Source: a phage
Length of the DNA: 64,000 nucleotides
NCBI GenBank assembly: GCA_018509705.1
Contig: GCA_018509705.1_3630.1
Direction: 5' to 3' (one strand)
Positions within the stretch are counted from its first letter, which is position 1. Each line of letters opens with the position of its first letter. Positions 4,609 to 54,389 of the stretch are shown piece after piece. The notes beneath the pieces are model-generated. The model made no database searches, was not told the DNA's origin, and worked only from the letters and a program-made list of their open reading frames with translations. The position numbers and the translations under genes were made by a program.

Positions 4609-4917
4609 ATGTACAAGCACTCCAGAGATCTTGAAAACGATGCTGTGTTTGGGGATCAGATGAAAGAATTGGTTAAACTTATAGGTAGGATAGAGGATAA
4701 GTTTGACACTAAGATCTACATCGACAGCAAAGTATTCAACCACAAAATATGGACAAATCTGTGTGTTGGACTACATGGAGATAAAGATGTGGTAAATTTA
4801 GTTGTAATTAAGTTCATAGTGTGGCAGAATAAAACTATAAATTATTACGATCCACACCTGCTTGTTTACCCGATAAAAGACCTATTAGAGAAGGAGGACT
4901 GCAATGCCGTTATTTAA
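4609..4917 (+). CDS. Hypothetical protein
   Basis: 102-aa ORF in co-oriented array; no motif recognised. Confidence 0.4.
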   Translation: MYKHSRDLENDAVFGDQMKELVKLIGRIEDKFDTKIYIDSKVFNHKIWTNLCVGLHGDKDVVNLVVIKFIVWQNKTINYYDPHLLVYPIKDLLEKEDCNAVI

Positions 4918-5173
4918 TCTTGCTAAACCTGTAGAAGCACACCAGTTTGACGGAAGCTCTTCATCAGTATCTGATCTGCAACGGTGGATTGATACAGGTG
5001 TGTTTACATCGTCACCTGTTCGGACCAGAGATCTTCGTCGTATGTGTGAGCTTGTAGAGCCGTTTGGTAACCTAGTCTTGTACCAGGGTGATTGGCTTGT
5101 TGATTTTATGGGTGACTGGTTGGTAATGAGTAAAGAAGAGATGTTTAAAATTTTTAAGGAAGAGGTAGAGTAA
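4904..5173 (+). CDS. Hypothetical protein
   Basis: 89-aa ORF; stop overlaps ligase start. Confidence 0.4.
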   Translation: MPLFNLAKPVEAHQFDGSSSSVSDLQRWIDTGVFTSSPVRTRDLRRMCELVEPFGNLVLYQGDWLVDFMGDWLVMSKEEMFKIFKEEVE

Positions 5174-46120: not shown

Positions 46121-46457
46121 TAAATTACCCTCATTAATGGCGGGAAGTATTCCCGCGCTATGTAGTACACTTTACCAGATTGTTGACTGTTGTCAAACTA
46201 TTTTAACGATAATCATCATATGCTTTATTGACCTGGCGAATATAACATTCAAAAGCTAGATCAATAGATTTATATTCACGGATATATTCACCATAGGAAA
46301 CCACATACATTTCTATAGCTTCCTCATATGCGAGGAGAATAGAATCTAAGCCTACGATCTCAGTCTTTGCAATAATAGCCATGATTTTTATCCTCTTTGT
46401 GGTTGGTGGGGCTTGTTGCCCCCTTTGATTTATATTCTACAGTCTTATAAGGTCATG

Positions 46458-46747: not shown

Positions 46748-47032
46748 TTATTTATTGATAGCGTGCAGCGGGAAAGGTACGCCAGGTTGATAGATAACTT
46801 TTACAACCTCATCAGAGCAAAAGAAATTACAAAATTCACCCTGATAAGCCTCATCCTCTTTTAATTCTTCATCAACATACTGGAAAAAGTAGTCAATGCT
46901 TGGATAATCCTGACCGGGATTATATTCAACCATGGTTAATAACAATTCTTGATCATTCCGTATGATATGCATACCAGCTTTTAAGTATTTGGCTTCCATT
47001 TCTACTACATCGCCAACGGTAACAATAGCCAT
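46748..47032 (-). CDS. Hypothetical protein
   Basis: 94-aa ORF. Confidence 0.45.
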   Translation of the reverse strand: MAIVTVGDVVEMEAKYLKAGMHIIRNDQELLLTMVEYNPGQDYPSIDYFFQYVDEELKEDEAYQGEFCNFFCSDEVVKVIYQPGVPFPLHAINK

Positions 47033-47169
47033 GGTTTTAACTCCTATCTATCCGGTTAATGATTGGAGGCCTCACCGCCCCCCGACACCCTTTATTATCC
47101 ATATTGTAGGACTTGATGCAAGTACTTCTTTAAAAATTTTTTAAGCGCCTTGGGGGCCGCTGTAACGCC

Positions 47170-47200
47170 AAAATAATAAAGGCTATGCAACCGCATAGCC
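47170..47200 (-). terminator. Rho-independent terminator (- strand)
   Basis: GGCTATGCAACCGCATAGCC hairpin followed on - strand by T-rich tract. Confidence 0.5.
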
Positions 47201-47238
47201 TTTATGTGATTATATCGCTGCAGGCCCTGCCAGGGGCC

Positions 47239-47589
47239 TTATTTTGCATTCTTTCCTATATTGCCGCTACGGTACCAGCGTTTACGGTGAAAATGGTAAT
47301 AATCACCATCGGCATTAAACATCAGATGATTTTCAATAACCAGCTTACGAAGGTGGGCCGGATCTTGTTCCATTCTTGCCAGATTCTGGCGGCTGTTACG
47401 TAAGCGGATAAATTCTATATTCAGGCCGTTGATTGCAGCATGGATGTCAAAGTAACCACCTTTGAGACGTTCACGCATGGCGTTAAGCTCAACACAATAT
47501 ACAGATTTCTCACAAATCAAGGTATTAGCCAGGGCGCGGACCTGGGCAAGAGGGTTAAGCTCATTAAGGTAATATAGTTTTACTTTCAT
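47239..47589 (-). CDS. Hypothetical protein
   Basis: 116-aa ORF. Confidence 0.45.
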   Translation of the reverse strand: MKVKLYYLNELNPLAQVRALANTLICEKSVYCVELNAMRERLKGGYFDIHAAINGLNIEFIRLRNSRQNLARMEQDPAHLRKLVIENHLMFNADGDYYHFHRKRWYRSGNIGKNAK

Positions 47590-47606
47590 AAAATCACCTG
47601 CTGAAA

Positions 47607-47927
47607 TTAGTTTGAGAAAACATCGTTCACAATAGCGATCACAATGCCGCCCACCTTGTCACGGTCAACAATGCACAAATCACCATAGATCATGTGGTAG
47701 TCTGGATGATCTTTGACGGAATAGTCGATAAGTGTTTTCTTGTCATCCAGCTTACTAACTTCCATTCTCATAACGATATGAGAATCATCAAAGGCATTAT
47801 TCCGAAAAGTCATAACCTGACCGCCAGGGCACCCGGTGATTTCCACCTCCACGCCGTCTACGATCTGACCATCAAAGAAATAAAGATTATTAGCCTGGAT
47901 AAACATGATCATTACTCCTTTTTGCAC
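47607..47927 (-). CDS. Hypothetical protein
   Basis: 106-aa ORF. Confidence 0.45.
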   Translation of the reverse strand: MQKGVMIMFIQANNLYFFDGQIVDGVEVEITGCPGGQVMTFRNNAFDDSHIVMRMEVSKLDDKKTLIDYSVKDHPDYHMIYGDLCIVDRDKVGGIVIAIVNDVFSN

Positions 47928-47950
47928 TGATTATTTTAACAGGGTTTAAA

Positions 47951-47994
47951 TTTACTTTATTGATGGCCCTGGAGTCAAGGCCATCTAAAAATAA
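47951..47994 (-). promoter_or_regulatory. 44-bp conserved element, copy 1 (palindrome GATGGCC-N10-GGCCATC containing a - strand TTGACT)
   Basis: Near-identical to copies at 51667 and 52288; sits just upstream of a - strand gene. Confidence 0.55.
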
Positions 47995-47997
47995 ATT

Positions 47998-48198
47998 TTA
48001 CAGGCCTACAATCTCTTTAATTCGTTTTACTGCTGCCTCAGCGCCTTGAGGGTAAAAATTATGGTAACCAATCACGCGAGTGATACTAATCGCCGTTTGA
48101 TGATCTTCATAATCACCTTTAAAGATTTCTTGACCGTCAATCAGCACGGCAATTTTTTCTTCTTTTTTGAAGTTAATAACGCGGATATTGTTGCTCAT
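47998..48198 (-). CDS. Hypothetical protein
   Basis: 66-aa ORF with AAGGAGA RBS. Confidence 0.4.
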   Translation of the reverse strand: MSNNIRVINFKKEEKIAVLIDGQEIFKGDYEDHQTAISITRVIGYHNFYPQGAEAAVKRIKEIVGL

Positions 48199-48339
48199 TT
48201 TGTTTCTCCTTTTGGAACTTTGTCTATGCGGTGGGGAGTGTCTCCCCGTTGATTGTTATTATCCATATTCTGGATCGGATTGCAACACTCAGGGAGAAAA
48301 AAATTTGAAAAGTTAGGCCCCCATGATCGGGGGCCGTTC

Positions 48340-48459
48340 TTAGTTACTTACAGCGATAAAGTACATCCCTACGCCTAGCAATATTTCAAGGGCGATAATC
48401 TCAAGCCATACCATAACGCGGCGCACCTTATCGGTGCATGGCTTATCCTTGGTTGTCAT
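48340..48459 (-). CDS. Small hydrophobic peptide (39 aa)
   Basis: Hand-translated MTTKDKPCTDKVRRVMVWLEIIALEILLGVGMYFIAVSN; GGGGAG RBS. Confidence 0.35.
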   Translation of the reverse strand: MTTKDKPCTDKVRRVMVWLEIIALEILLGVGMYFIAVSN

Positions 48460-48625
48460 CGTCTCCCCCTTTCCTTCTGGTAGTAGTGACGCGATCTACA
48501 ATGGCCCCCAGGAGTCCTATCACGACACACACCACAAGAAAAATTATCTCCGCTGTTGTTCGATCCATTGTTATAAAATTCCTCAAGATCAGGCCTGAAA
48601 ATAAAGCGTTCGTTATTGAATCCAT
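48443..48625 (-). CDS. Small membrane protein
   Basis: 60-aa ORF with TM segment IIFLVVCVVIGLLGAIV. Confidence 0.35.
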   Translation of the reverse strand: MDSITNALFSGLILRNFITMDRTTAEIIFLVVCVVIGLLGAIVDRVTTTRRKGGDDDNQG

Positions 48626-48678
48626 CCCGCCAGGCGGCTGGCTTCAAATCTTCACTAAAGGGGTTAATTAACGTGGCA

Positions 48679-49083
48679 TTATTTAAACGGCTGGTCCACA
48701 TATTTTCTATTCCTCTCAAATAGGCGATCCGCCTCAGTTAAACAAATCTCATGGGCGTGATCTCTGGTTTTAGCTTCATCGAAAACCTGTTGTGCAAGGC
48801 TGCAACGTAGGGAGACTGGAAGATCACTATAATAGGCGTTGACAAACGTTTGAGCGTCGTACAGGTCTGAAAATACTTTACCCTTTCTATTATTCCCCTT
48901 GTCAACAATTGCAAGGATAACCAATACAATAGTTGCAACCACCCCCAGGAAAATAGATATAATAAACCATAAAAAGGCGGATCTTCCCATCTTGCCAGCG
49001 ATCCAGGCGTTAAACAAGGCAACCAATACAGCCAAAATAATAAATTCCATTCTATGTACCTCTTTTACAGTTCTGATTAACAA
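48679..49083 (-). CDS. Membrane protein (two TM helices); start uncertain
   Basis: Hydrophobic segments FIILAVLVALFNAWIA and FLWFIISIFLGVVATIVLVILAIV. Confidence 0.45.
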   Translation of the reverse strand: MLIRTVKEVHRMEFIILAVLVALFNAWIAGKMGRSAFLWFIISIFLGVVATIVLVILAIVDKGNNRKGKVFSDLYDAQTFVNAYYSDLPVSLRCSLAQQVFDEAKTRDHAHEICLTEADRLFERNRKYVDQPFK

Positions 49084-49114
49084 TAAGGCGGCAAATATGC
49101 CGCCTGCTACCTGA

Positions 49115-49495
49115 TTAAAAATTATCGCCGTAAATCTTTCCGCTTTCTACCCATACCACCACGCGAGGCATACTATCCCACACGTCTTGTTTTAGATTGA
49201 GCGCGTGCAATTCTTCGGTGGTGCTCATACCGGGCACGGGCTGATTGTATACTGCAAAACGACCGCCTGCATAATCATAGGCCAGGGTTAAATCACACTG
49301 GATCATCTTTTTGATCATGGCATTAAGCATGGCGTTAGCCGCATATTGATCACGTTTTAAAGGCAACTCTTTGATTAGTTTGCGATAGTTTTCGATATGG
49401 TCGCACACTGTTTCACGAGGAAGATCTTTCATATCTTCACGGAATGTAACCAGGTTAAACATAACGGTGTCAATAGCCTTGGTAGTGTTTTTCAT
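49115..49495 (-). CDS. Hypothetical protein
   Basis: 126-aa ORF with AAGAGGA RBS. Confidence 0.45.
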   Translation of the reverse strand: MKNTTKAIDTVMFNLVTFREDMKDLPRETVCDHIENYRKLIKELPLKRDQYAANAMLNAMIKKMIQCDLTLAYDYAGGRFAVYNQPVPGMSTTEELHALNLKQDVWDSMPRVVVWVESGKIYGDNF

Positions 49496-49585
49496 GATGT
49501 TATCCTCTTTGTTTTGTGTTGGGGCAAACGTCTTGCCACCTTGAGTTTTAATATAGCAGGTTTTTAGGTTATTGCAACACTTTAT

Positions 49586-49963
49586 TTATGAAAAAGTCAT
49601 CTCACCATATTCATCGACATCAAACCGCCAATCATTGGCCTCGATAAGGCCGATCAGGTTTTCTGCGGTGAACTGTTCTAGATAGGCCTCCTCCAGGTCT
49701 ACGTAAACCTTGCGGGATAGCTCCCGTACCGTCTCGGTGATCAGTTCTTCCAGGTCTTCCACTTTGTTTTCTTGTTTGGCGGTCAGATCTAGCCAAGTGG
49801 TATCAATGTACCCGCTTACAGTGTTTTCATGGCTGTAATGGCTGTACTTGTCGCGTTCAACACTGGCTGATAACTCGCCATCGTGCATTGTGCCGAACAA
49901 GTGACGAATTGATCGGAACTTGGTCAGGGCCTTTACTTTACGCAAAAATTTTTCTAAATCCAC
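49586..49963 (-). CDS. Hypothetical protein
   Basis: 125-aa acidic ORF. Confidence 0.45.
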   Translation of the reverse strand: MDLEKFLRKVKALTKFRSIRHLFGTMHDGELSASVERDKYSHYSHENTVSGYIDTTWLDLTAKQENKVEDLEELITETVRELSRKVYVDLEEAYLEQFTAENLIGLIEANDWRFDVDEYGEMTFS

Positions 49964-50020
49964 GTTTTCAGCACTGATTGACGCGCCGTCACCCTGGCAC
50001 CAAAAGCCTGACCAATGTAC

Positions 50021-50209
50021 TTAGGTATCTTCAAGGCCATACTCTGGAAAAACATATTCTTTATAGTATTCAATTACACTTTCTGCAAAAAAGTTATCCC
50101 CGCTGTGTTCTTCTCTTTCGCGGACCATTTCAACGGCTTTTTCTTTTTGTTCGTCGGTCAGCACGTCGAAAGATAAATTGTAACCTGCGGTAATGTTAAC
50201 GGTGGTCAT
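50021..50209 (-). CDS. Hypothetical protein
   Basis: 62-aa ORF downstream of promoter and leader hairpin. Confidence 0.45.
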   Translation of the reverse strand: MTTVNITAGYNLSFDVLTDEQKEKAVEMVREREEHSGDNFFAESVIEYYKEYVFPEYGLEDT

Positions 50210-50266
50210 GATATTTTCTCCTATTTTCTTTGTTAGTGGCGGGAAGTTTTCCCGCCTGTGTGTTTA

Positions 50267-50294
50267 AGTATACTTATTGAGGCTTACTTGTCAA
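50267..50294 (-). promoter_or_regulatory. Sigma70-type promoter on - strand (TTGACA-16-TATACT)
   Basis: Read directly on reverse complement. Confidence 0.55.
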
Positions 50295-50544
50295 CACTAT
50301 TTTTTAAATTATTGTGGCGCAAAATGTTTAAAATCTCCTCAACGTCATCAACACGGCGGCAATTTTTAAACGCTACCAATTGCCCCATGATTTTAATCAC
50401 TGGGCGGCCTTGCCAGTGCCCCTGAAGAAAGCGCGCCCTGACTTTATCGGTGGAACTATCACGCCACCAAATAGCCTTGTTGTTGCAGTAGTAAAAATTA
50501 TTCAGGATAACATCAACTTTATCAAAATTTTTTAATTTACGCAT
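50284..50544 (-). CDS. Hypothetical protein
   Basis: 86-aa ORF. Confidence 0.4.
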   Translation of the reverse strand: MRKLKNFDKVDVILNNFYYCNNKAIWWRDSSTDKVRARFLQGHWQGRPVIKIMGQLVAFKNCRRVDDVEEILNILRHNNLKNSVDK

Positions 50545-50762
50545 GGCGTTTACTCCTTTCTCTCTTTGATGTGGTTAGTATAGCTAACCTGTTGACGATG
50601 TCAATGATATTTTTAACGCCATGAAACGGCCCTGGGCGATGTTTTCAGGTTAAAGGGGGCGATTGCATAGGTGGGGGCCTTTTTGGCGCTTACAGGGCCA
50701 ACCAGGGGCGCTATTCGTAGGATAGAAATAAAAAGCCCCGCACAATGGCGGGGCGTTGGTTG

Positions 50763-50984
50763 TTATTTGTCTTTATGGCGGTATCGTTCTGCCTGTCGTT
50801 CACGTTCCAAAAGTAGGCCGGGCAATTTACGATCATAATGATTACGCCAGATCTTCCCAAACCTTTTTGGCTTATTCAGTTTATTGTTACGCTGGCGGCG
50901 TTCTGGCAGCTCTTCGGAATCATGAGGGCGCTTTACAATTTTCTCGAAATTAATTTTCATATATTCCCCCCTTGCTAACTTCAA
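50763..50984 (-). CDS. Small highly basic protein
   Basis: 73 aa rich in R/K. Confidence 0.4.
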   Translation of the reverse strand: MKLARGEYMKINFEKIVKRPHDSEELPERRQRNNKLNKPKRFGKIWRNHYDRKLPGLLLERERQAERYRHKDK

Positions 50985-51303
50985 TATTGGCCTGAATAGC
51001 CCGGATACGGCGCTTTATAACTTCCTGATCTGTGTGGTCGTATCCCCAAAAGTCTACAATTTTTGCGCCCCCCGCCTCCAGGCGGTATAGTGTTTCCTGC
51101 ATTTTGTAAGCCGGGATCGGTCGCGGTGTTACTTGGTCACCTTCTTTATTTTTATACTTTATAATATAATCTTCGTTATCGTTGAATGCCCAAAATGGAT
51201 ATTCTGCAAGGGCGGTACTTCCTCTTTCCTTTTTATCCTGGATCTTATTTACAATTAAAGCCGTAGCAATAGCGCCAATAATAAAACTTGCCCCGCTGAT
51301 CAT
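50950..51303 (-). CDS. Hypothetical protein with N-terminal TM segment
   Basis: 117-aa ORF; hydrophobic N-terminus. Confidence 0.45.
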   Translation of the reverse strand: MISGASFIIGAIATALIVNKIQDKKERGSTALAEYPFWAFNDNEDYIIKYKNKEGDQVTPRPIPAYKMQETLYRLEAGGAKIVDFWGYDHTDQEVIKRRIRAIQANIEVSKGGIYEN

Positions 51304-51377
51304 GTACTTTCTCCTTTCATGGTGTTAATAAATTATCTTTATAGATGGCCCTGCAACCAGGACCACCGAAAAAATAA

Positions 51378-51623
51378 CTATTTCACAATGCCTACAAAAC
51401 AGATCCCGCCTTCACCTATATAAGCAATATCGGTCACTTTATAACTTGTCAAGATCTGCTTATTTAGTTCATTAATAAAATCGGTCATTGCGTTGGTGTA
51501 GTTGTCTTCCGTGTCTAAGGCATAATCCCAGGTGTACACCTTTTTACGTCCGAAGCCTTTTACCATGATACGGGCGCTTTTGGTGTTGGTAGGGGCATAA
51601 TATTTGGTGATTAGTGCTGCCAT
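51378..51623 (-). CDS. Hypothetical protein
   Basis: 81-aa ORF downstream of element copy 2. Confidence 0.45.
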   Translation of the reverse strand: MAALITKYYAPTNTKSARIMVKGFGRKKVYTWDYALDTEDNYTNAMTDFINELNKQILTSYKVTDIAYIGEGGICFVGIVK

Positions 51624-51666
51624 GGTTTTAACTCCTATGCATTAGTTCAGTGTTAACAGTATAAAG

Positions 51667-51710
51667 TTTACTTTATTGATGGCCCTGGTGTCAAGGCCAT
51701 CTAAAAATAA
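51667..51710 (-). promoter_or_regulatory. 44-bp conserved element, copy 2
   Basis: TTTACTTTATTGATGGCCCTGGTGTCAAGGCCATCTAAAAATAA. Confidence 0.55.
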
Positions 51711-51712
51711 GC

Positions 51713-52054
51713 TTACTCGTTTTCTTCCAGCTCCGCAAGCTCTTCTTTTGCTTCTTCTAACTCTGTCTGTAATTCCTGGTATTCTTCATCGTCCTCAATA
51801 TCCAGGCTGTCGATGTAGTCGCTAAATCCGCAGCGGTAAGCGATAGGATCTAGCTCCTTGAGGATACGCGACGGAAGAAAAGAAATGTTTCCGATCATAA
51901 TTTCGCCGTAGATCTCGTCTAACCATTCATCATAGTTTTCGTCGTACTTGTCCTCGTCGATTTCAAAGTTATCGATCTTATTCTCAAGGTCTGCGATCTG
52001 TTTTTTCAGTTCAGCGATCTGCATAGCTTTTTCTGAGGCGGTCATAGTAGTCAT
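51713..52054 (-). CDS. Highly acidic coiled-coil protein
   Basis: 113 aa, D/E-rich with heptad-like spacing. Confidence 0.45.
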   Translation of the reverse strand: MTTMTASEKAMQIAELKKQIADLENKIDNFEIDEDKYDENYDEWLDEIYGEIMIGNISFLPSRILKELDPIAYRCGFSDYIDSLDIEDDEEYQELQTELEEAKEELAELEENE

Positions 52055-52105
52055 GGTGTTTTTCTCCTTTTGTGTGTTCTGGGAAGTTTTCCCGTTTATG
52101 TGCTT

Positions 52106-52133
52106 ATTATATCGATTTAAGTTAGCTTGTCAA
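52106..52133 (-). promoter_or_regulatory. Sigma70-type promoter on - strand (TTGACA-16-TATAAT)
   Basis: Read directly on reverse complement. Confidence 0.55.
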
Positions 52134-52253
52134 TTAAAAGTTTAAGAAAAATTTTGCGACACCGTTGGCGCTACCCATCAACATTTGCGCCAGGATGTAC
52201 CCAATGATGCAAACGATGATGGTTACCTTTGTGTGCTGGCGTGTAGTGCTCAT
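52134..52253 (-). CDS. Small hydrophobic peptide (39 aa)
   Basis: Hand-translated MSTTRQHTKVTIIVCIIGYILAQMLMGSANGVAKFFLNF; AAAGGAGG RBS. Confidence 0.4.
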   Translation of the reverse strand: MSTTRQHTKVTIIVCIIGYILAQMLMGSANGVAKFFLNF

Positions 52254-52287
52254 CTTTAAGCCTCCTTTTCCGCTCAACTGTGGTTAG

Positions 52288-52331
52288 TTTACTTTATTGA
52301 TGGCCCTGGTGTCAAGGCCATCTAAAAATAA
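52288..52331 (-). promoter_or_regulatory. 44-bp conserved element, copy 3
   Basis: Identical core to copy 2. Confidence 0.55.
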
Positions 52332-52333
52332 AC

Positions 52334-52729
52334 TCAATAAGTTTTTAGTACTTTCCCGTCCAATCTGTCAAGCTGGATCTCGATAGCTGCAGAAAACCTA
52401 TTGTAAACCACATCGCCCAGGGAGTCCAGCCAATCTATGACGTTATATACCTGCTCTTTATTCTTGCAAGTCCGGATCCGTTTCATTACGTAAGACGGAT
52501 CAATATTAGCGCTCTCGTTGTTGTGGTCCTGCGCCTGGCCTGCTGCGCTAGTTATAGATTTTACAACCACCTGAAAGGGCTTTAAGGTGCCTTTTGCGTT
52601 CATCTCACGCGCTTTTGCGGCGCGGTTGTTATATGTTACACAACGGCGGCAAATGTTGACCAAATGCATATCAATAATTTTTTCATCGTTTGCCAGTTCG
52701 TTCATGATGCGGCGTACGTTCTTGTTCAT
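52334..52729 (-). CDS. Hypothetical protein
   Basis: 131-aa ORF. Confidence 0.45.
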   Translation of the reverse strand: MNKNVRRIMNELANDEKIIDMHLVNICRRCVTYNNRAAKAREMNAKGTLKPFQVVVKSITSAAGQAQDHNNESANIDPSYVMKRIRTCKNKEQVYNVIDWLDSLGDVVYNRFSAAIEIQLDRLDGKVLKTY

Positions 52730-52811
52730 GATCTTTTTCCTTTGTGCTGGCGGGAAACATTCCCGCCTTTTGTGTCTAGTTTACTTAAATTTTGCAGCGT
52801 GTCAATGATTT

Positions 52812-53210
52812 TTATTCGTGGGCGCATGTTACAATGTGTTTTTTATAGCCCAGGTGGTCAGCAAGTGCCGACAAAAACTCTTCTTCGTAGATCCAGCCGT
52901 CGGCAGTGATCCCCATAGCATTTAATGCGCTCTCAAGTGCTGCGTTAGCTTTATCGTAACCGTGACCGCTCGCCTTGCCGCCAGTATAACCGTACTTATT
53001 GTTCTTGTTGTCGTGAATCCAAAACACGCAGTAGTGAGTGTTCCCGCTGGCGGCGGCATAATACCGGATCTCAGCTACTTCGTGCAAATTATTGTCATCG
53101 TCCAGGCCCACCAGATTATAAGCCTTGTAAAATCCACGATCACGGCGGCAGTTCTTGACATCAGAAAAAGAAAAGTCCGCATTATCAAAATTAAAGGTAG
53201 TGGTTTTCAT
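52812..53210 (-). CDS. Hypothetical protein
   Basis: 132-aa ORF. Confidence 0.45.
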   Translation of the reverse strand: MKTTTFNFDNADFSFSDVKNCRRDRGFYKAYNLVGLDDDNNLHEVAEIRYYAAASGNTHYCVFWIHDNKNNKYGYTGGKASGHGYDKANAALESALNAMGITADGWIYEEEFLSALADHLGYKKHIVTCAHE

Positions 53211-53866: not shown

Positions 53867-54293
53867 ATACCTATCGAAAGGACGGCAGGCACCGGTGACG
53901 GGGGAGACAACCACCGGGGATGGGCGCTGCATAAAATGAGAACGGTTATCATTATCATTTAAAAATTTATGCAAAAAATCCTTGCCTTCTTTGTCCTGTG
54001 TGATACTATAATAACAAGCCGGGGCAACAGGGGCCGGGAGACAATCACCGGGCCTGCCCGTTATTCTGCAAACGAGAATGATTATCATTCAAAATTCTAA
54101 ATGAGAACTCCTCGCATTTAATAAATTTAATTAGCATGCTAATTACCCTCCGTAACAATTTCCTATAAAACAGTATCCCATAAAATATTCCCATATAGAA
54201 ATTTTAAAAATCCATTTCTGAAAACGAAAAATCGATTTCGTCCCCAAAAATTTCAGGTCGAGAGCTGGAACGATTTCCAGAAAATCCGATTCA

Positions 54294-54389
54294 GAAAACG
54301 AAAAACAGATCGAGTACTTGGAAATTTATCGAGAAAAATTTTCAGAAAATTCAATCTTTGAAACGAAAAACAGATCGAGTACTTGGAAA
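54294..54389. repeat. 30-bp direct repeat GAAAACGAAAAACAGATCGAGTACTTGGAAA (two near-identical copies 65 bp apart; degenerate third copy near 54219)
   Basis: Read directly in 1-kb non-coding island. Confidence 0.75.

Follow-up and report, generated by a model that had tools for sequence, protein, structure and literature searches.

Two-tier intercistronic hairpins resembling T7 RNase III sites, and acting as recombination junctions, in the early region of an rV5-like phage

Morons are promoter-gene-terminator units inserted between phage genes. In phage T7 the RNase III signals lie between cistrons in polycistronic units that host RNA polymerase reads, on the strand that is transcribed, and form hairpins of about two helical turns in which an upper stem of 9-10 bp with a tetra- or pentaloop is separated by an asymmetric internal loop from an A/U-rich lower stem. 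The cassettes termed PeSLs (promoter-early stem-loops), which recur in the T4-type phages RB49/phi1, T4/PST and KVP40/nt-1, run from a stop codon within AT-rich sequence through a stem-loop with G-T pairs, possibly overlapping a -35 element, to a Shine-Dalgarno sequence and a start codon; they cluster among small ORFans and mediate indels, and a PeSL stem-loop lowered lacZ expression about as much as rrnB T1 did (PMC2839356, PMC4122927). Here a family of four intercistronic hairpins (hp1 to hp4) that shares features with each of these systems is described in a 64,000-nt stretch of phage DNA (contig GCA_018509705.1_3630.1 of GenBank assembly GCA_018509705.1; hereafter the window). The window belongs to a Vequintavirus, an rV5-like myovirus, and is 99.8% identical to Escherichia phage EdH4 across 47000-53000, a region covered by 110 other phage records besides EdH4. 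The genes around the hairpins are small early open reading frames (ORFs), all on the - strand. The element is apparently undescribed in Vequintaviruses and adds a further case to the known regulatory cassettes of phages rather than a new mechanism.

An initial annotation made from the sequence had noted a 44-bp repeat in three copies. The 44-mer was found at exactly 47951-47994, 51667-51710 and 52288-52331, with copy 1 differing by one A/T, and gave 0 matches in 100 dinucleotide shuffles. The dyad GATGGCC-N10-GGCCATC, said to lie within it, was present in all three copies (four matches at ≤2 mismatches against 0.14 expected), and the TTGAC(A/T) hexamer reported for the loop on the - strand was likewise found there. 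A fourth, diverged copy (hp4) had been overlooked; it was identified by a repeat search at 69% identity and covariance models agree with this assignment. A genome-wide search with family covariance models, covering the window and the remaining 73.5 kb of EdH4, returned exactly these four members, all within 4.4 kb of the early region (Table 1). The copies had been placed upstream of - strand genes, which is correct, but each also begins at the stop codon of the preceding - strand gene: every hairpin starts at or within 1-3 nt of that stop and ends 27-42 nt ahead of the next ATG. In the annotations of EdH4, Alma and rV5 the hairpins are marked as neither promoter nor terminator, and they are not among the 33 promoters and 20 terminators tabulated in the rV5 paper. 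A permissive-threshold Rfam scan of 47500-52800 gave nothing relevant, only chance sub-threshold matches.

Table 1. Positions of the hairpins, of the motifs and predicted cut zones within them, and of associated features of the window
Feature	Position	Strand	dG (kcal/mol)	z-score	T7-site model (bits; E)	Details
hp1 (copy 1)	47949-47997	-	-23.6	-6.3	23.7; 0.005	Two-tier hairpin, loop ACUC; follows TAA (48000-47998) of ORF 47998-48198; ends 42 nt short of ATG 47906
hp2 (copy 2)	51665-51713	-	-22.3	-5.2	26.0; 0.0013	Loop ACAC; lower stem starts at last base of TAA of ORF 51713-52054; ends 41 nt short of ATG 51623
hp3 (copy 3)	52286-52334	-	-25.1	-6.0	24.6; 0.0029	Loop ACAC; lower stem starts at last base of TGA of ORF 52334-52729; ends 33 nt short of ATG 52252 (39-aa ORF)
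hp4 (diverged fourth copy)	51331-51379	-	-24.6	-6.1	23.7; 0.005	Same architecture with G.U and flipped pairs, loop GUUG; overlaps TAG of ORF 51378-51623; ends 27 nt short of ATG 51303
Predicted single RNase III cut zone, hp2	51675-51677	-				3' side of internal loop (AAU), by analogy with T7 R1
Predicted cut zone, hp1	47959-47961	-				Equivalent position, by analogy with T7 R1
Predicted cut zone, hp3	52296-52298	-				Equivalent position, by analogy with T7 R1
Predicted cut zone, hp4	51341-51343	-				Equivalent position (UAU), by analogy with T7 R1
Sigma-70-like motif over hp3	52286-52315	-				TTGACA-N18-TAAACT, 10/12; -35 in loop and 5' arm, -10 in 3' arm of lower stem
Sigma-70-like motif over hp2	51665-51694	-				TTGACA-N18-TAAACT, 10/12
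Sigma-70-like motif over hp1	47949-47978	-				TTGACT-N18-TAAATT, 9/12
621-bp variable module	51714-52334	-				hp3, 39-aa ORF, P192 and 113-aa ORF; bounded by direct repeats hp3 and hp2
Cassette of P192, 113-aa ORF and hp2	51661-52134	-				93.5% nucleotide identity with phage KKE7M
Early promoter P192	52106-52133	-				Consensus TTGACA-N16-TATAAT, 12/12; also in rV5 Table S4
Canonical intrinsic terminator closing the P192 unit	50735-50754	-				GC stem, then UUUUUAUUU
Other canonical terminator	48316-48335					
Other canonical terminator	47176-47205					

When the transcribed - strand was folded as RNA, the dyad proved to be only the top of a longer hairpin with two tiers. Its upper stem comprises 10 bp rather than 7 (GAUGGCCUUG / CAGGGCCAUC, with one U.G pair) and is closed by a tetraloop, whilst below a 2x3-nt internal loop (5'-UA / 3'-AAU in hp1-3, UC / UAU in hp4) there is a lower stem of 10 A/U pairs. 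Folding energies were -22 to -25 kcal/mol for the - strand (z-scores of -5 to -6) and -16 to -18 kcal/mol for the + strand. Related phages yielded 56 homologues (41 distinct) at 16 loci, namely 14 Vequintavirus genomes or contigs, the window and one phi92-like phage. In all 56 the sense strand is the more stable, with a mean of -23.2 kcal/mol against -14.0 kcal/mol for the antisense strand, and in none does the internal loop close to Watson-Crick pairs. Standard pairs are formed by 98.7% of pair cells, a figure that falls to 35-55% with the partners shifted by 1-3 columns; in the lower stem four pairs are altered on both sides, and the covariation score was reached by none of 500 shuffles. Two hp4 pairs can be followed across phages from U-A through U.G to C-G and from A-U through G.U to G-C, and G.U accounts for 13% of all pair cells, where the opposite strand would have A-C mismatches. 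Relative to hp1-3, the upper stem of hp4 carries three changes in one arm only (A>G, C>U and U>C), each wobble-compatible, and hp4 keeps the helix with two flipped pairs but has lost TTGACA. Its loop varies among homologues (GUUG, GCUG, GUAA, GUAG and GUGG). Loop variants are also common to copies within one genome, which suggests gene conversion between copies. The palindrome had been said to look like an embedded operator, a suggestion that is not borne out: the arms change on one side, in a G.U-compatible manner, or in compensation via G.U intermediates, DNA dyad symmetry is broken by these changes, and in hp4 neither arm is the reverse complement of the other at the DNA level. Given the covariation, the G.U intermediates and the strand asymmetry in stability, the helix is very probably selected in the sense-strand RNA and not as a DNA operator.

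For comparison, the regions between early cistrons of T7 were folded around the RNase III sites and gave the same two-tier shape. Site R1 folds as (((((..(((((((((....)))))))))...))))) and has an identical internal loop, 5'-UA / 3'-AAU, and R4.7 and R18.5 are also two-tiered. A covariance model was then built from seven T7 RNase III sites alone (R0.3, R0.5, R1, R1.1, R1.3, R4.7 and R18.5), sites R3.8, R6.5 and R13 being left out as they gave no two-tier fold at the coordinates used. Run with filters off over both strands of the window, this model returned the four hairpins as its top four matches, all on the - strand and at full length, with scores of 23.7-26.0 bits and E-values of 0.0013-0.005, and the next match scored 14.4 bits (E 1.2); it found no match in the other 73.5 kb of the genome. 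In the reciprocal search, the rV5 hairpin model without filters matched the whole T7 genome at two places only, sites R1 and R0.3, and did not find the late T7 sites. The published description of R1.1, with a GCAA loop, U:G and C:G in the middle box and UA/UG in the distal box (PMC1540722), matches the fold obtained at the R1.1 position used. In a register inferred from the text of the same paper, the hairpins have a U.G pair at stem position 8, as do the T7 sites, an A-U pair at position 2 of the proximal box (pb2) and a non-Watson-Crick pair beside the loop. The two groups are alike in intercistronic position, in transcribed strand, in belonging to polycistronic units read by host RNA polymerase, and in the dimensions of upper stem, loop, internal loop and lower stem given above for T7, and their profiles match in both directions. 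They differ in that the phage examined here is an unrelated myovirus with only four sites, clustered in 4.4 kb, that the UA pair of the distal box is C-G and the proximal box is different, and that three of the copies overlap sigma-70-like -35 and -10 motifs. Common descent and convergence are both compatible with the likeness to T7 sites, and cleavage in the present phage is predicted only.

That the element is not a canonical terminator, as had been proposed, was confirmed: on both strands A-rich sequence lies 3' of the element and T-rich sequence 5' of it, the 3' flank being AAUAAAGUAAA on the - strand and UAAAAAUAA on the + strand, so that no U-tract follows the stem on either strand. The hairpins share with rho-independent terminators a GC-rich hairpin directly after a stop codon, but have a stem about twice the usual length that is interrupted by an internal loop, and a terminator scan of the window did not report them. 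The P192 unit runs from ORF 51713-52054 through hp2, ORF 51378-51623, hp4 and ORFs 50950-51303 and 50763-50984 to the canonical terminator, an annotated feature of EdH4 and Alma that rV5 Table S4 also lists. As hp4 lacks a promoter and a promoter scan at ≥10/12 found no promoter-like site after it, the genes beyond hp4 need read-through, and the hairpins therefore cannot be strong terminators. A canonical rho-independent terminator was ruled out by the missing U-tract and by this dependence of downstream genes on read-through.

The hairpin repeats are in addition recombination junctions. The 621-bp module bounded by hp3 and hp2 is missing from phages ime and ECP26 and from the IMG/VR contig L162, with exactly one repeat left at the junction. 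A cassette comprising P192, the 113-aa ORF and hp2 is shared with KKE7M, a phi92-like phage of the genus Justusliebigvirus and so of another subfamily, in which it ends at the -35 element of P192 on one side and at the 3' end of the hairpin on the other. At the same spot muut, a relative of KKE7M, has an ordinary early promoter, TTGACA-N16-TAAACT, and then the same 5' untranslated region (5'-UTR). Comparison of muut with KKE7M indicates that the cassette entered via two crossovers, one at its P192 end in the -35 element or spacer and one at its hairpin end in GTAAAYT. The near-identical direct repeats are thus substrates of homologous recombination by which gene cassettes are added, deleted and exported, and they explain the recurrent 621-bp presence/absence polymorphism. 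The exchange with KKE7M is a clean promoter-to-promoter transfer between two phage subfamilies and extends the shuffling model developed for PeSLs beyond T4-type phages. As with morons, P192, the 113-aa ORF and hp2 form a self-contained transferable cassette, present or absent among Vequintaviruses and moved into KKE7M; the differences are that the 3' element is not a canonical terminator and that entry was by homologous exchange within promoter sequences and not between prophage genes. A second presence/absence polymorphism lies at 47250-47592, where the 116-aa ORF 47239-47589 is missing from rV5, phita32, HMD-6 and L162. Its junction adjoins terminator-like palindromes at 47176-47239 and not the hairpin family.

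From the observed structure, strand, conservation with covariation, T7-site similarity and recombination junctions we infer RNase III cleavage, a stabilising effect and any promoter activity, all functional claims made here being computational. By analogy with T7, the hairpins would on balance, though only just, be probable intercistronic processing or stability signals of the RNase III type. Host RNA polymerase would start at ordinary early promoters such as P192 and transcribe through the hairpin, which would form directly behind the stop codon of the preceding cistron. Host RNase III would most likely cut once, on the 3' side of the internal loop. The upper hairpin, GC-rich and 10 bp long, would then cap the upstream cistron and presumably protect it against 3' exonucleases, while the downstream cistrons would be released as an RNA of their own. 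At three of the four hairpins the preceding cistron is promoter-proximal and bears a 5'-UTR hairpin as well; such a cistron, bracketed by putative stabilising structures, could become a doubly protected monocistronic mRNA. At hp1-3 transcription may re-initiate from the overlapping sigma-70-like motif in the manner of PeSLs, hp4 presumably acting as a hairpin only. If the hairpins are RNase III sites, the stability of early mRNAs of a large myovirus would be shaped by host RNase III much as in T7, and rnc hosts and hairpin mutants would provide a simple handle on the expression of early ORFans. Phages of the rV5 type are in wide use as therapy and biocontrol candidates, yet the regulation of their early genes is essentially unannotated.

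Several points weigh against assignment of the hairpins to the RNase III type. Conservation of TTGAC in the loop of hp1-3 is unexplained by an RNase III role alone, and in the register given above the box determinants are only partly matched: stem position 7 is C-G and not the canonical A-U, position 1 of the distal box is C-G and not the canonical U-A, pb1 has U-A in place of the canonical G-C, and pb2 of hp4 is G.U. The E-values of covariance models are rough and, hp1-3 being near-identical, the four hits amount effectively to two independent matches. The homologues are 85-99% identical and affected by gene conversion, so that independent substitutions are few, and the alignment was fitted to the model. 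A literature search for transcriptome, transcript or RNase III processing studies of Vequintaviruses found none. The T7 site coordinates are those attributed to Dunn and Studier (1983), R1.1 alone having been corroborated against a paper. The T7 GenBank feature tables examined carry no entries for RNase III sites.

Among the alternatives, the one that fares best is that of a cassette of PeSL type without RNase III, in which the stem-loop attenuates or terminates upstream transcription and an overlapping sigma-70 promoter restarts it. The anatomy fits the published description, in that both are repeated intergenic cassettes among small early ORFans with a shared layout of stop codon, AT-rich stretch, stem-loop, -10 element, Shine-Dalgarno sequence and ATG, and with G-T pairs in the stems; the reduction of lacZ expression by the published stem-loop to about the same extent as by rrnB T1 also favours this explanation, as do the indel and cassette junctions within the present repeats, PeSLs likewise mediating indels and gene shuffling between related genomes. 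However, the promoter is weaker and atypical here, its spacer measuring 18 nt and an A-rich tract being absent upstream, and hp4 has none; the stem-loop is a long two-tier helix like that of RNase III sites and not a polyG/polyC stem; and there are four copies, in a different phage family, against about 50 in RB49/phi1. The absence of a U-tract on either strand argues further against attenuation or termination at the hairpins, canonical terminators being used elsewhere in the phage, and efficient termination at the promoterless hp4 would silence the two genes that follow it, for which no other promoter was found at ≥10/12. An internal loop and a length of about 20 bp are unneeded for a terminator and typical of RNase III sites. 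A purely PeSL-type cassette is therefore considered unlikely.

The explanation given in the initial annotation, that the repeats are promoters with an embedded operator and co-regulate three transcription units, taken here to mean sigma-70 promoters whose -35 element lies in a palindromic operator bound by a dimeric phage or host repressor, is improbable, although part of it is retained. The promoter portion is plausible in that TTGACN-N18-TAAAYT, at 9-10 of 12 consensus positions, is present in hp1-3, but the motif is weak and atypical and is missing from hp4. In its favour, TTGAC is retained in about 40 homologues while loop positions 3 and 4, the last two, take any base, and in copy 1 of phage HMD-6 a 1-nt deletion in the loop is offset by a 1-nt insertion past the stem so that the N18 spacing is preserved. 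Furthermore, GTAAAYT, with which the element ends on its 3' side, shares homology with the -10 element of the genuine early promoter of muut and was the crossover point with that promoter. Against this, hp1-3 have neither the 16-17-nt spacer, nor the A-rich tract upstream of -35, nor the GC-rich 5'-UTR hairpin of the early promoters of this phage; the -10-like hexamer lies wholly inside the lower stem, where its variable position covaries with the pairing partner; and one hp3 homologue has a 5-nt loop and an extra A that bring the spacing to 20 nt. In hp4 no -35 element stands in register (CTGGTT), yet this copy is as conserved as the others, and none of the hairpins is among the 33 rV5 promoters. 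The operator portion is countered by half-sites that do not co-evolve as a DNA dyad, by the one-armed, wobble-compatible differences of hp4, by compensatory changes through G.U intermediates and the frequency of wobble pairs, and by an antisense fold that is 9 kcal/mol worse; no repressor candidate was identified. Promoter activity of hp1-3 is accordingly a possibility that, judged from the motifs, falls a little short of being probable, and it cannot be the function shared by the hairpin family.

A passive 3' stabiliser or insulator resembling repetitive extragenic palindromic (REP) elements would block 3'-to-5' exonucleases after cleavage elsewhere, or insulate cistrons, with no specific recognition by a nuclease. 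The position immediately after stop codons in operons and the stable GC-rich upper stem suit such a role, as do similar U-tract-free hairpins, about 20 bp long, in two distant relatives, L124, where they follow stop codons, and L127. A 10-bp hairpin would suffice for it, though, and the asymmetric internal loop, the A/U lower stem and the match to the T7-site profile would be left unexplained, so that little probability attaches to a purely passive function. That the repeats serve mainly as DNA elements, whether recombination sites or hairpins of single-stranded DNA (e.g. replication or packaging signals), with an incidental RNA structure, is highly improbable. In its favour, the 621-bp indel and the inter-subfamily cassette junctions fall within the repeats, the sharing of loop variants within a genome suggests gene conversion, G.T is tolerated in DNA hairpins and covariation alone cannot separate RNA from sense-strand single-stranded DNA. 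Against it, all copies are in transcription orientation and keep one register relative to stop codons, hp4 retains the fold although at 69% identity its divergence is too great for recombination with the other copies, the copies lie within 4.4 kb of the early region and not at genome ends or a replication origin, and any repeat recombines with no selection for a fold being required.

The RNase III-type reading can be joined to the retained promoter motif in a more ambitious, tentative and rather doubtful proposal, namely that the 49 nt are dual-coded, serving as a sigma-70 promoter in DNA, as an RNase III site in RNA and as a patch of homology for cassette transfer between subfamilies (Vequintavirinae to Stephanstirmvirinae). 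Were this true, read-through RNA would be cut and fresh transcripts begun within about 20 nt, and T7-style RNA processing would be joined with PeSL-style modular shuffling in a third phage lineage. For annotation the family carries a warning, in that not every TTGACA-containing palindrome is a promoter/operator or a terminator.

Composite arrangements were also seen in T7 (L210; 2694-2778 and 1024-1108), where two minor E. coli promoters, C (start 3113) and B (start 1514), adjoin R1 and R0.5; several T7 promoters also lie beside R sites. Composites of promoter and processing hairpin thus already exist in T7.

The early promoters of the phage have a 16-17-nt spacer, an A-rich tract abutting -35 and usually a GC-rich 5'-UTR hairpin. 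The latter hairpins form a family of their own, GGCGGGAA-N-TTCCCGCC and variants, found on the - strand at 46130-46167, 50229-50266, 52069-52106, 52749-52767 and 48229-48251. They sit 5-15 nt past the -10 element of most consensus early promoters, ahead of the Shine-Dalgarno sequence, and KKE7M and muut, both phi92-like phages, show the same arrangement of promoter and 5'-UTR hairpin. A probable role for these stem-loops is stabilisation of the mRNA at its 5' end.

An IMG/VR scan for the bare dyad matched at least 120 unrelated contigs and was uninformative except for L116 and a look-alike in L020, whereas a scan for the 3' arm found two rV5-like contigs only. The look-alike, at 4904-4964 of an unrelated, GC-richer viral contig (IMGVR_UViG_2886027523_000001), has the identical 10-bp upper stem (GATGGCCTTG / CAGGGCCATC), a GCAA loop and a different lower stem, and scored an E-value of about 5e-4 with the family model; since TCTTTTCT follows it on the + strand, it may be an ordinary terminator. 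A search guided by the protein of the 113-aa ORF gave eight loci, and the family model found no member in the distant L124-L130. Two of these, L124 (9467-9519 and 7436-7496) and L127 (7895-7947), which have in common with the window only a 48%-identical homologue of the 113-aa ORF, possess hairpins of their own of about 20 bp without a U-tract. Those of L124, the contig whose flanking ORFs were checked, stand directly after stop codons on the sense strand, and the T7 RNase III-site model scored 22.2 bits (E 0.014) on L124 9467-9519. This suggests a wider habit in the phage group of placing hairpins of RNase III-site length just after stop codons.

Elsewhere in the window, three direct repeats of about 57 nt occur at 54194-54389 with spacings of 74 and 65 nt and the core GAAAACGAAAAACAGATCGAGTACTTGGAAA, in a segment with only tiny ORFs. 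They look like iterons and cross-match in ime and ECP26, and the genome map in the rV5 paper shows a 'non-coding' box. Finally, 17 records labelled 'Campylobacter phage' (UNVERIFIED; MG065635, MG065644, MG065666 and others) are 93-99.7% identical to E. coli rV5-like phages over the region, and either their host labels are probably wrong or the records are probably contaminants.

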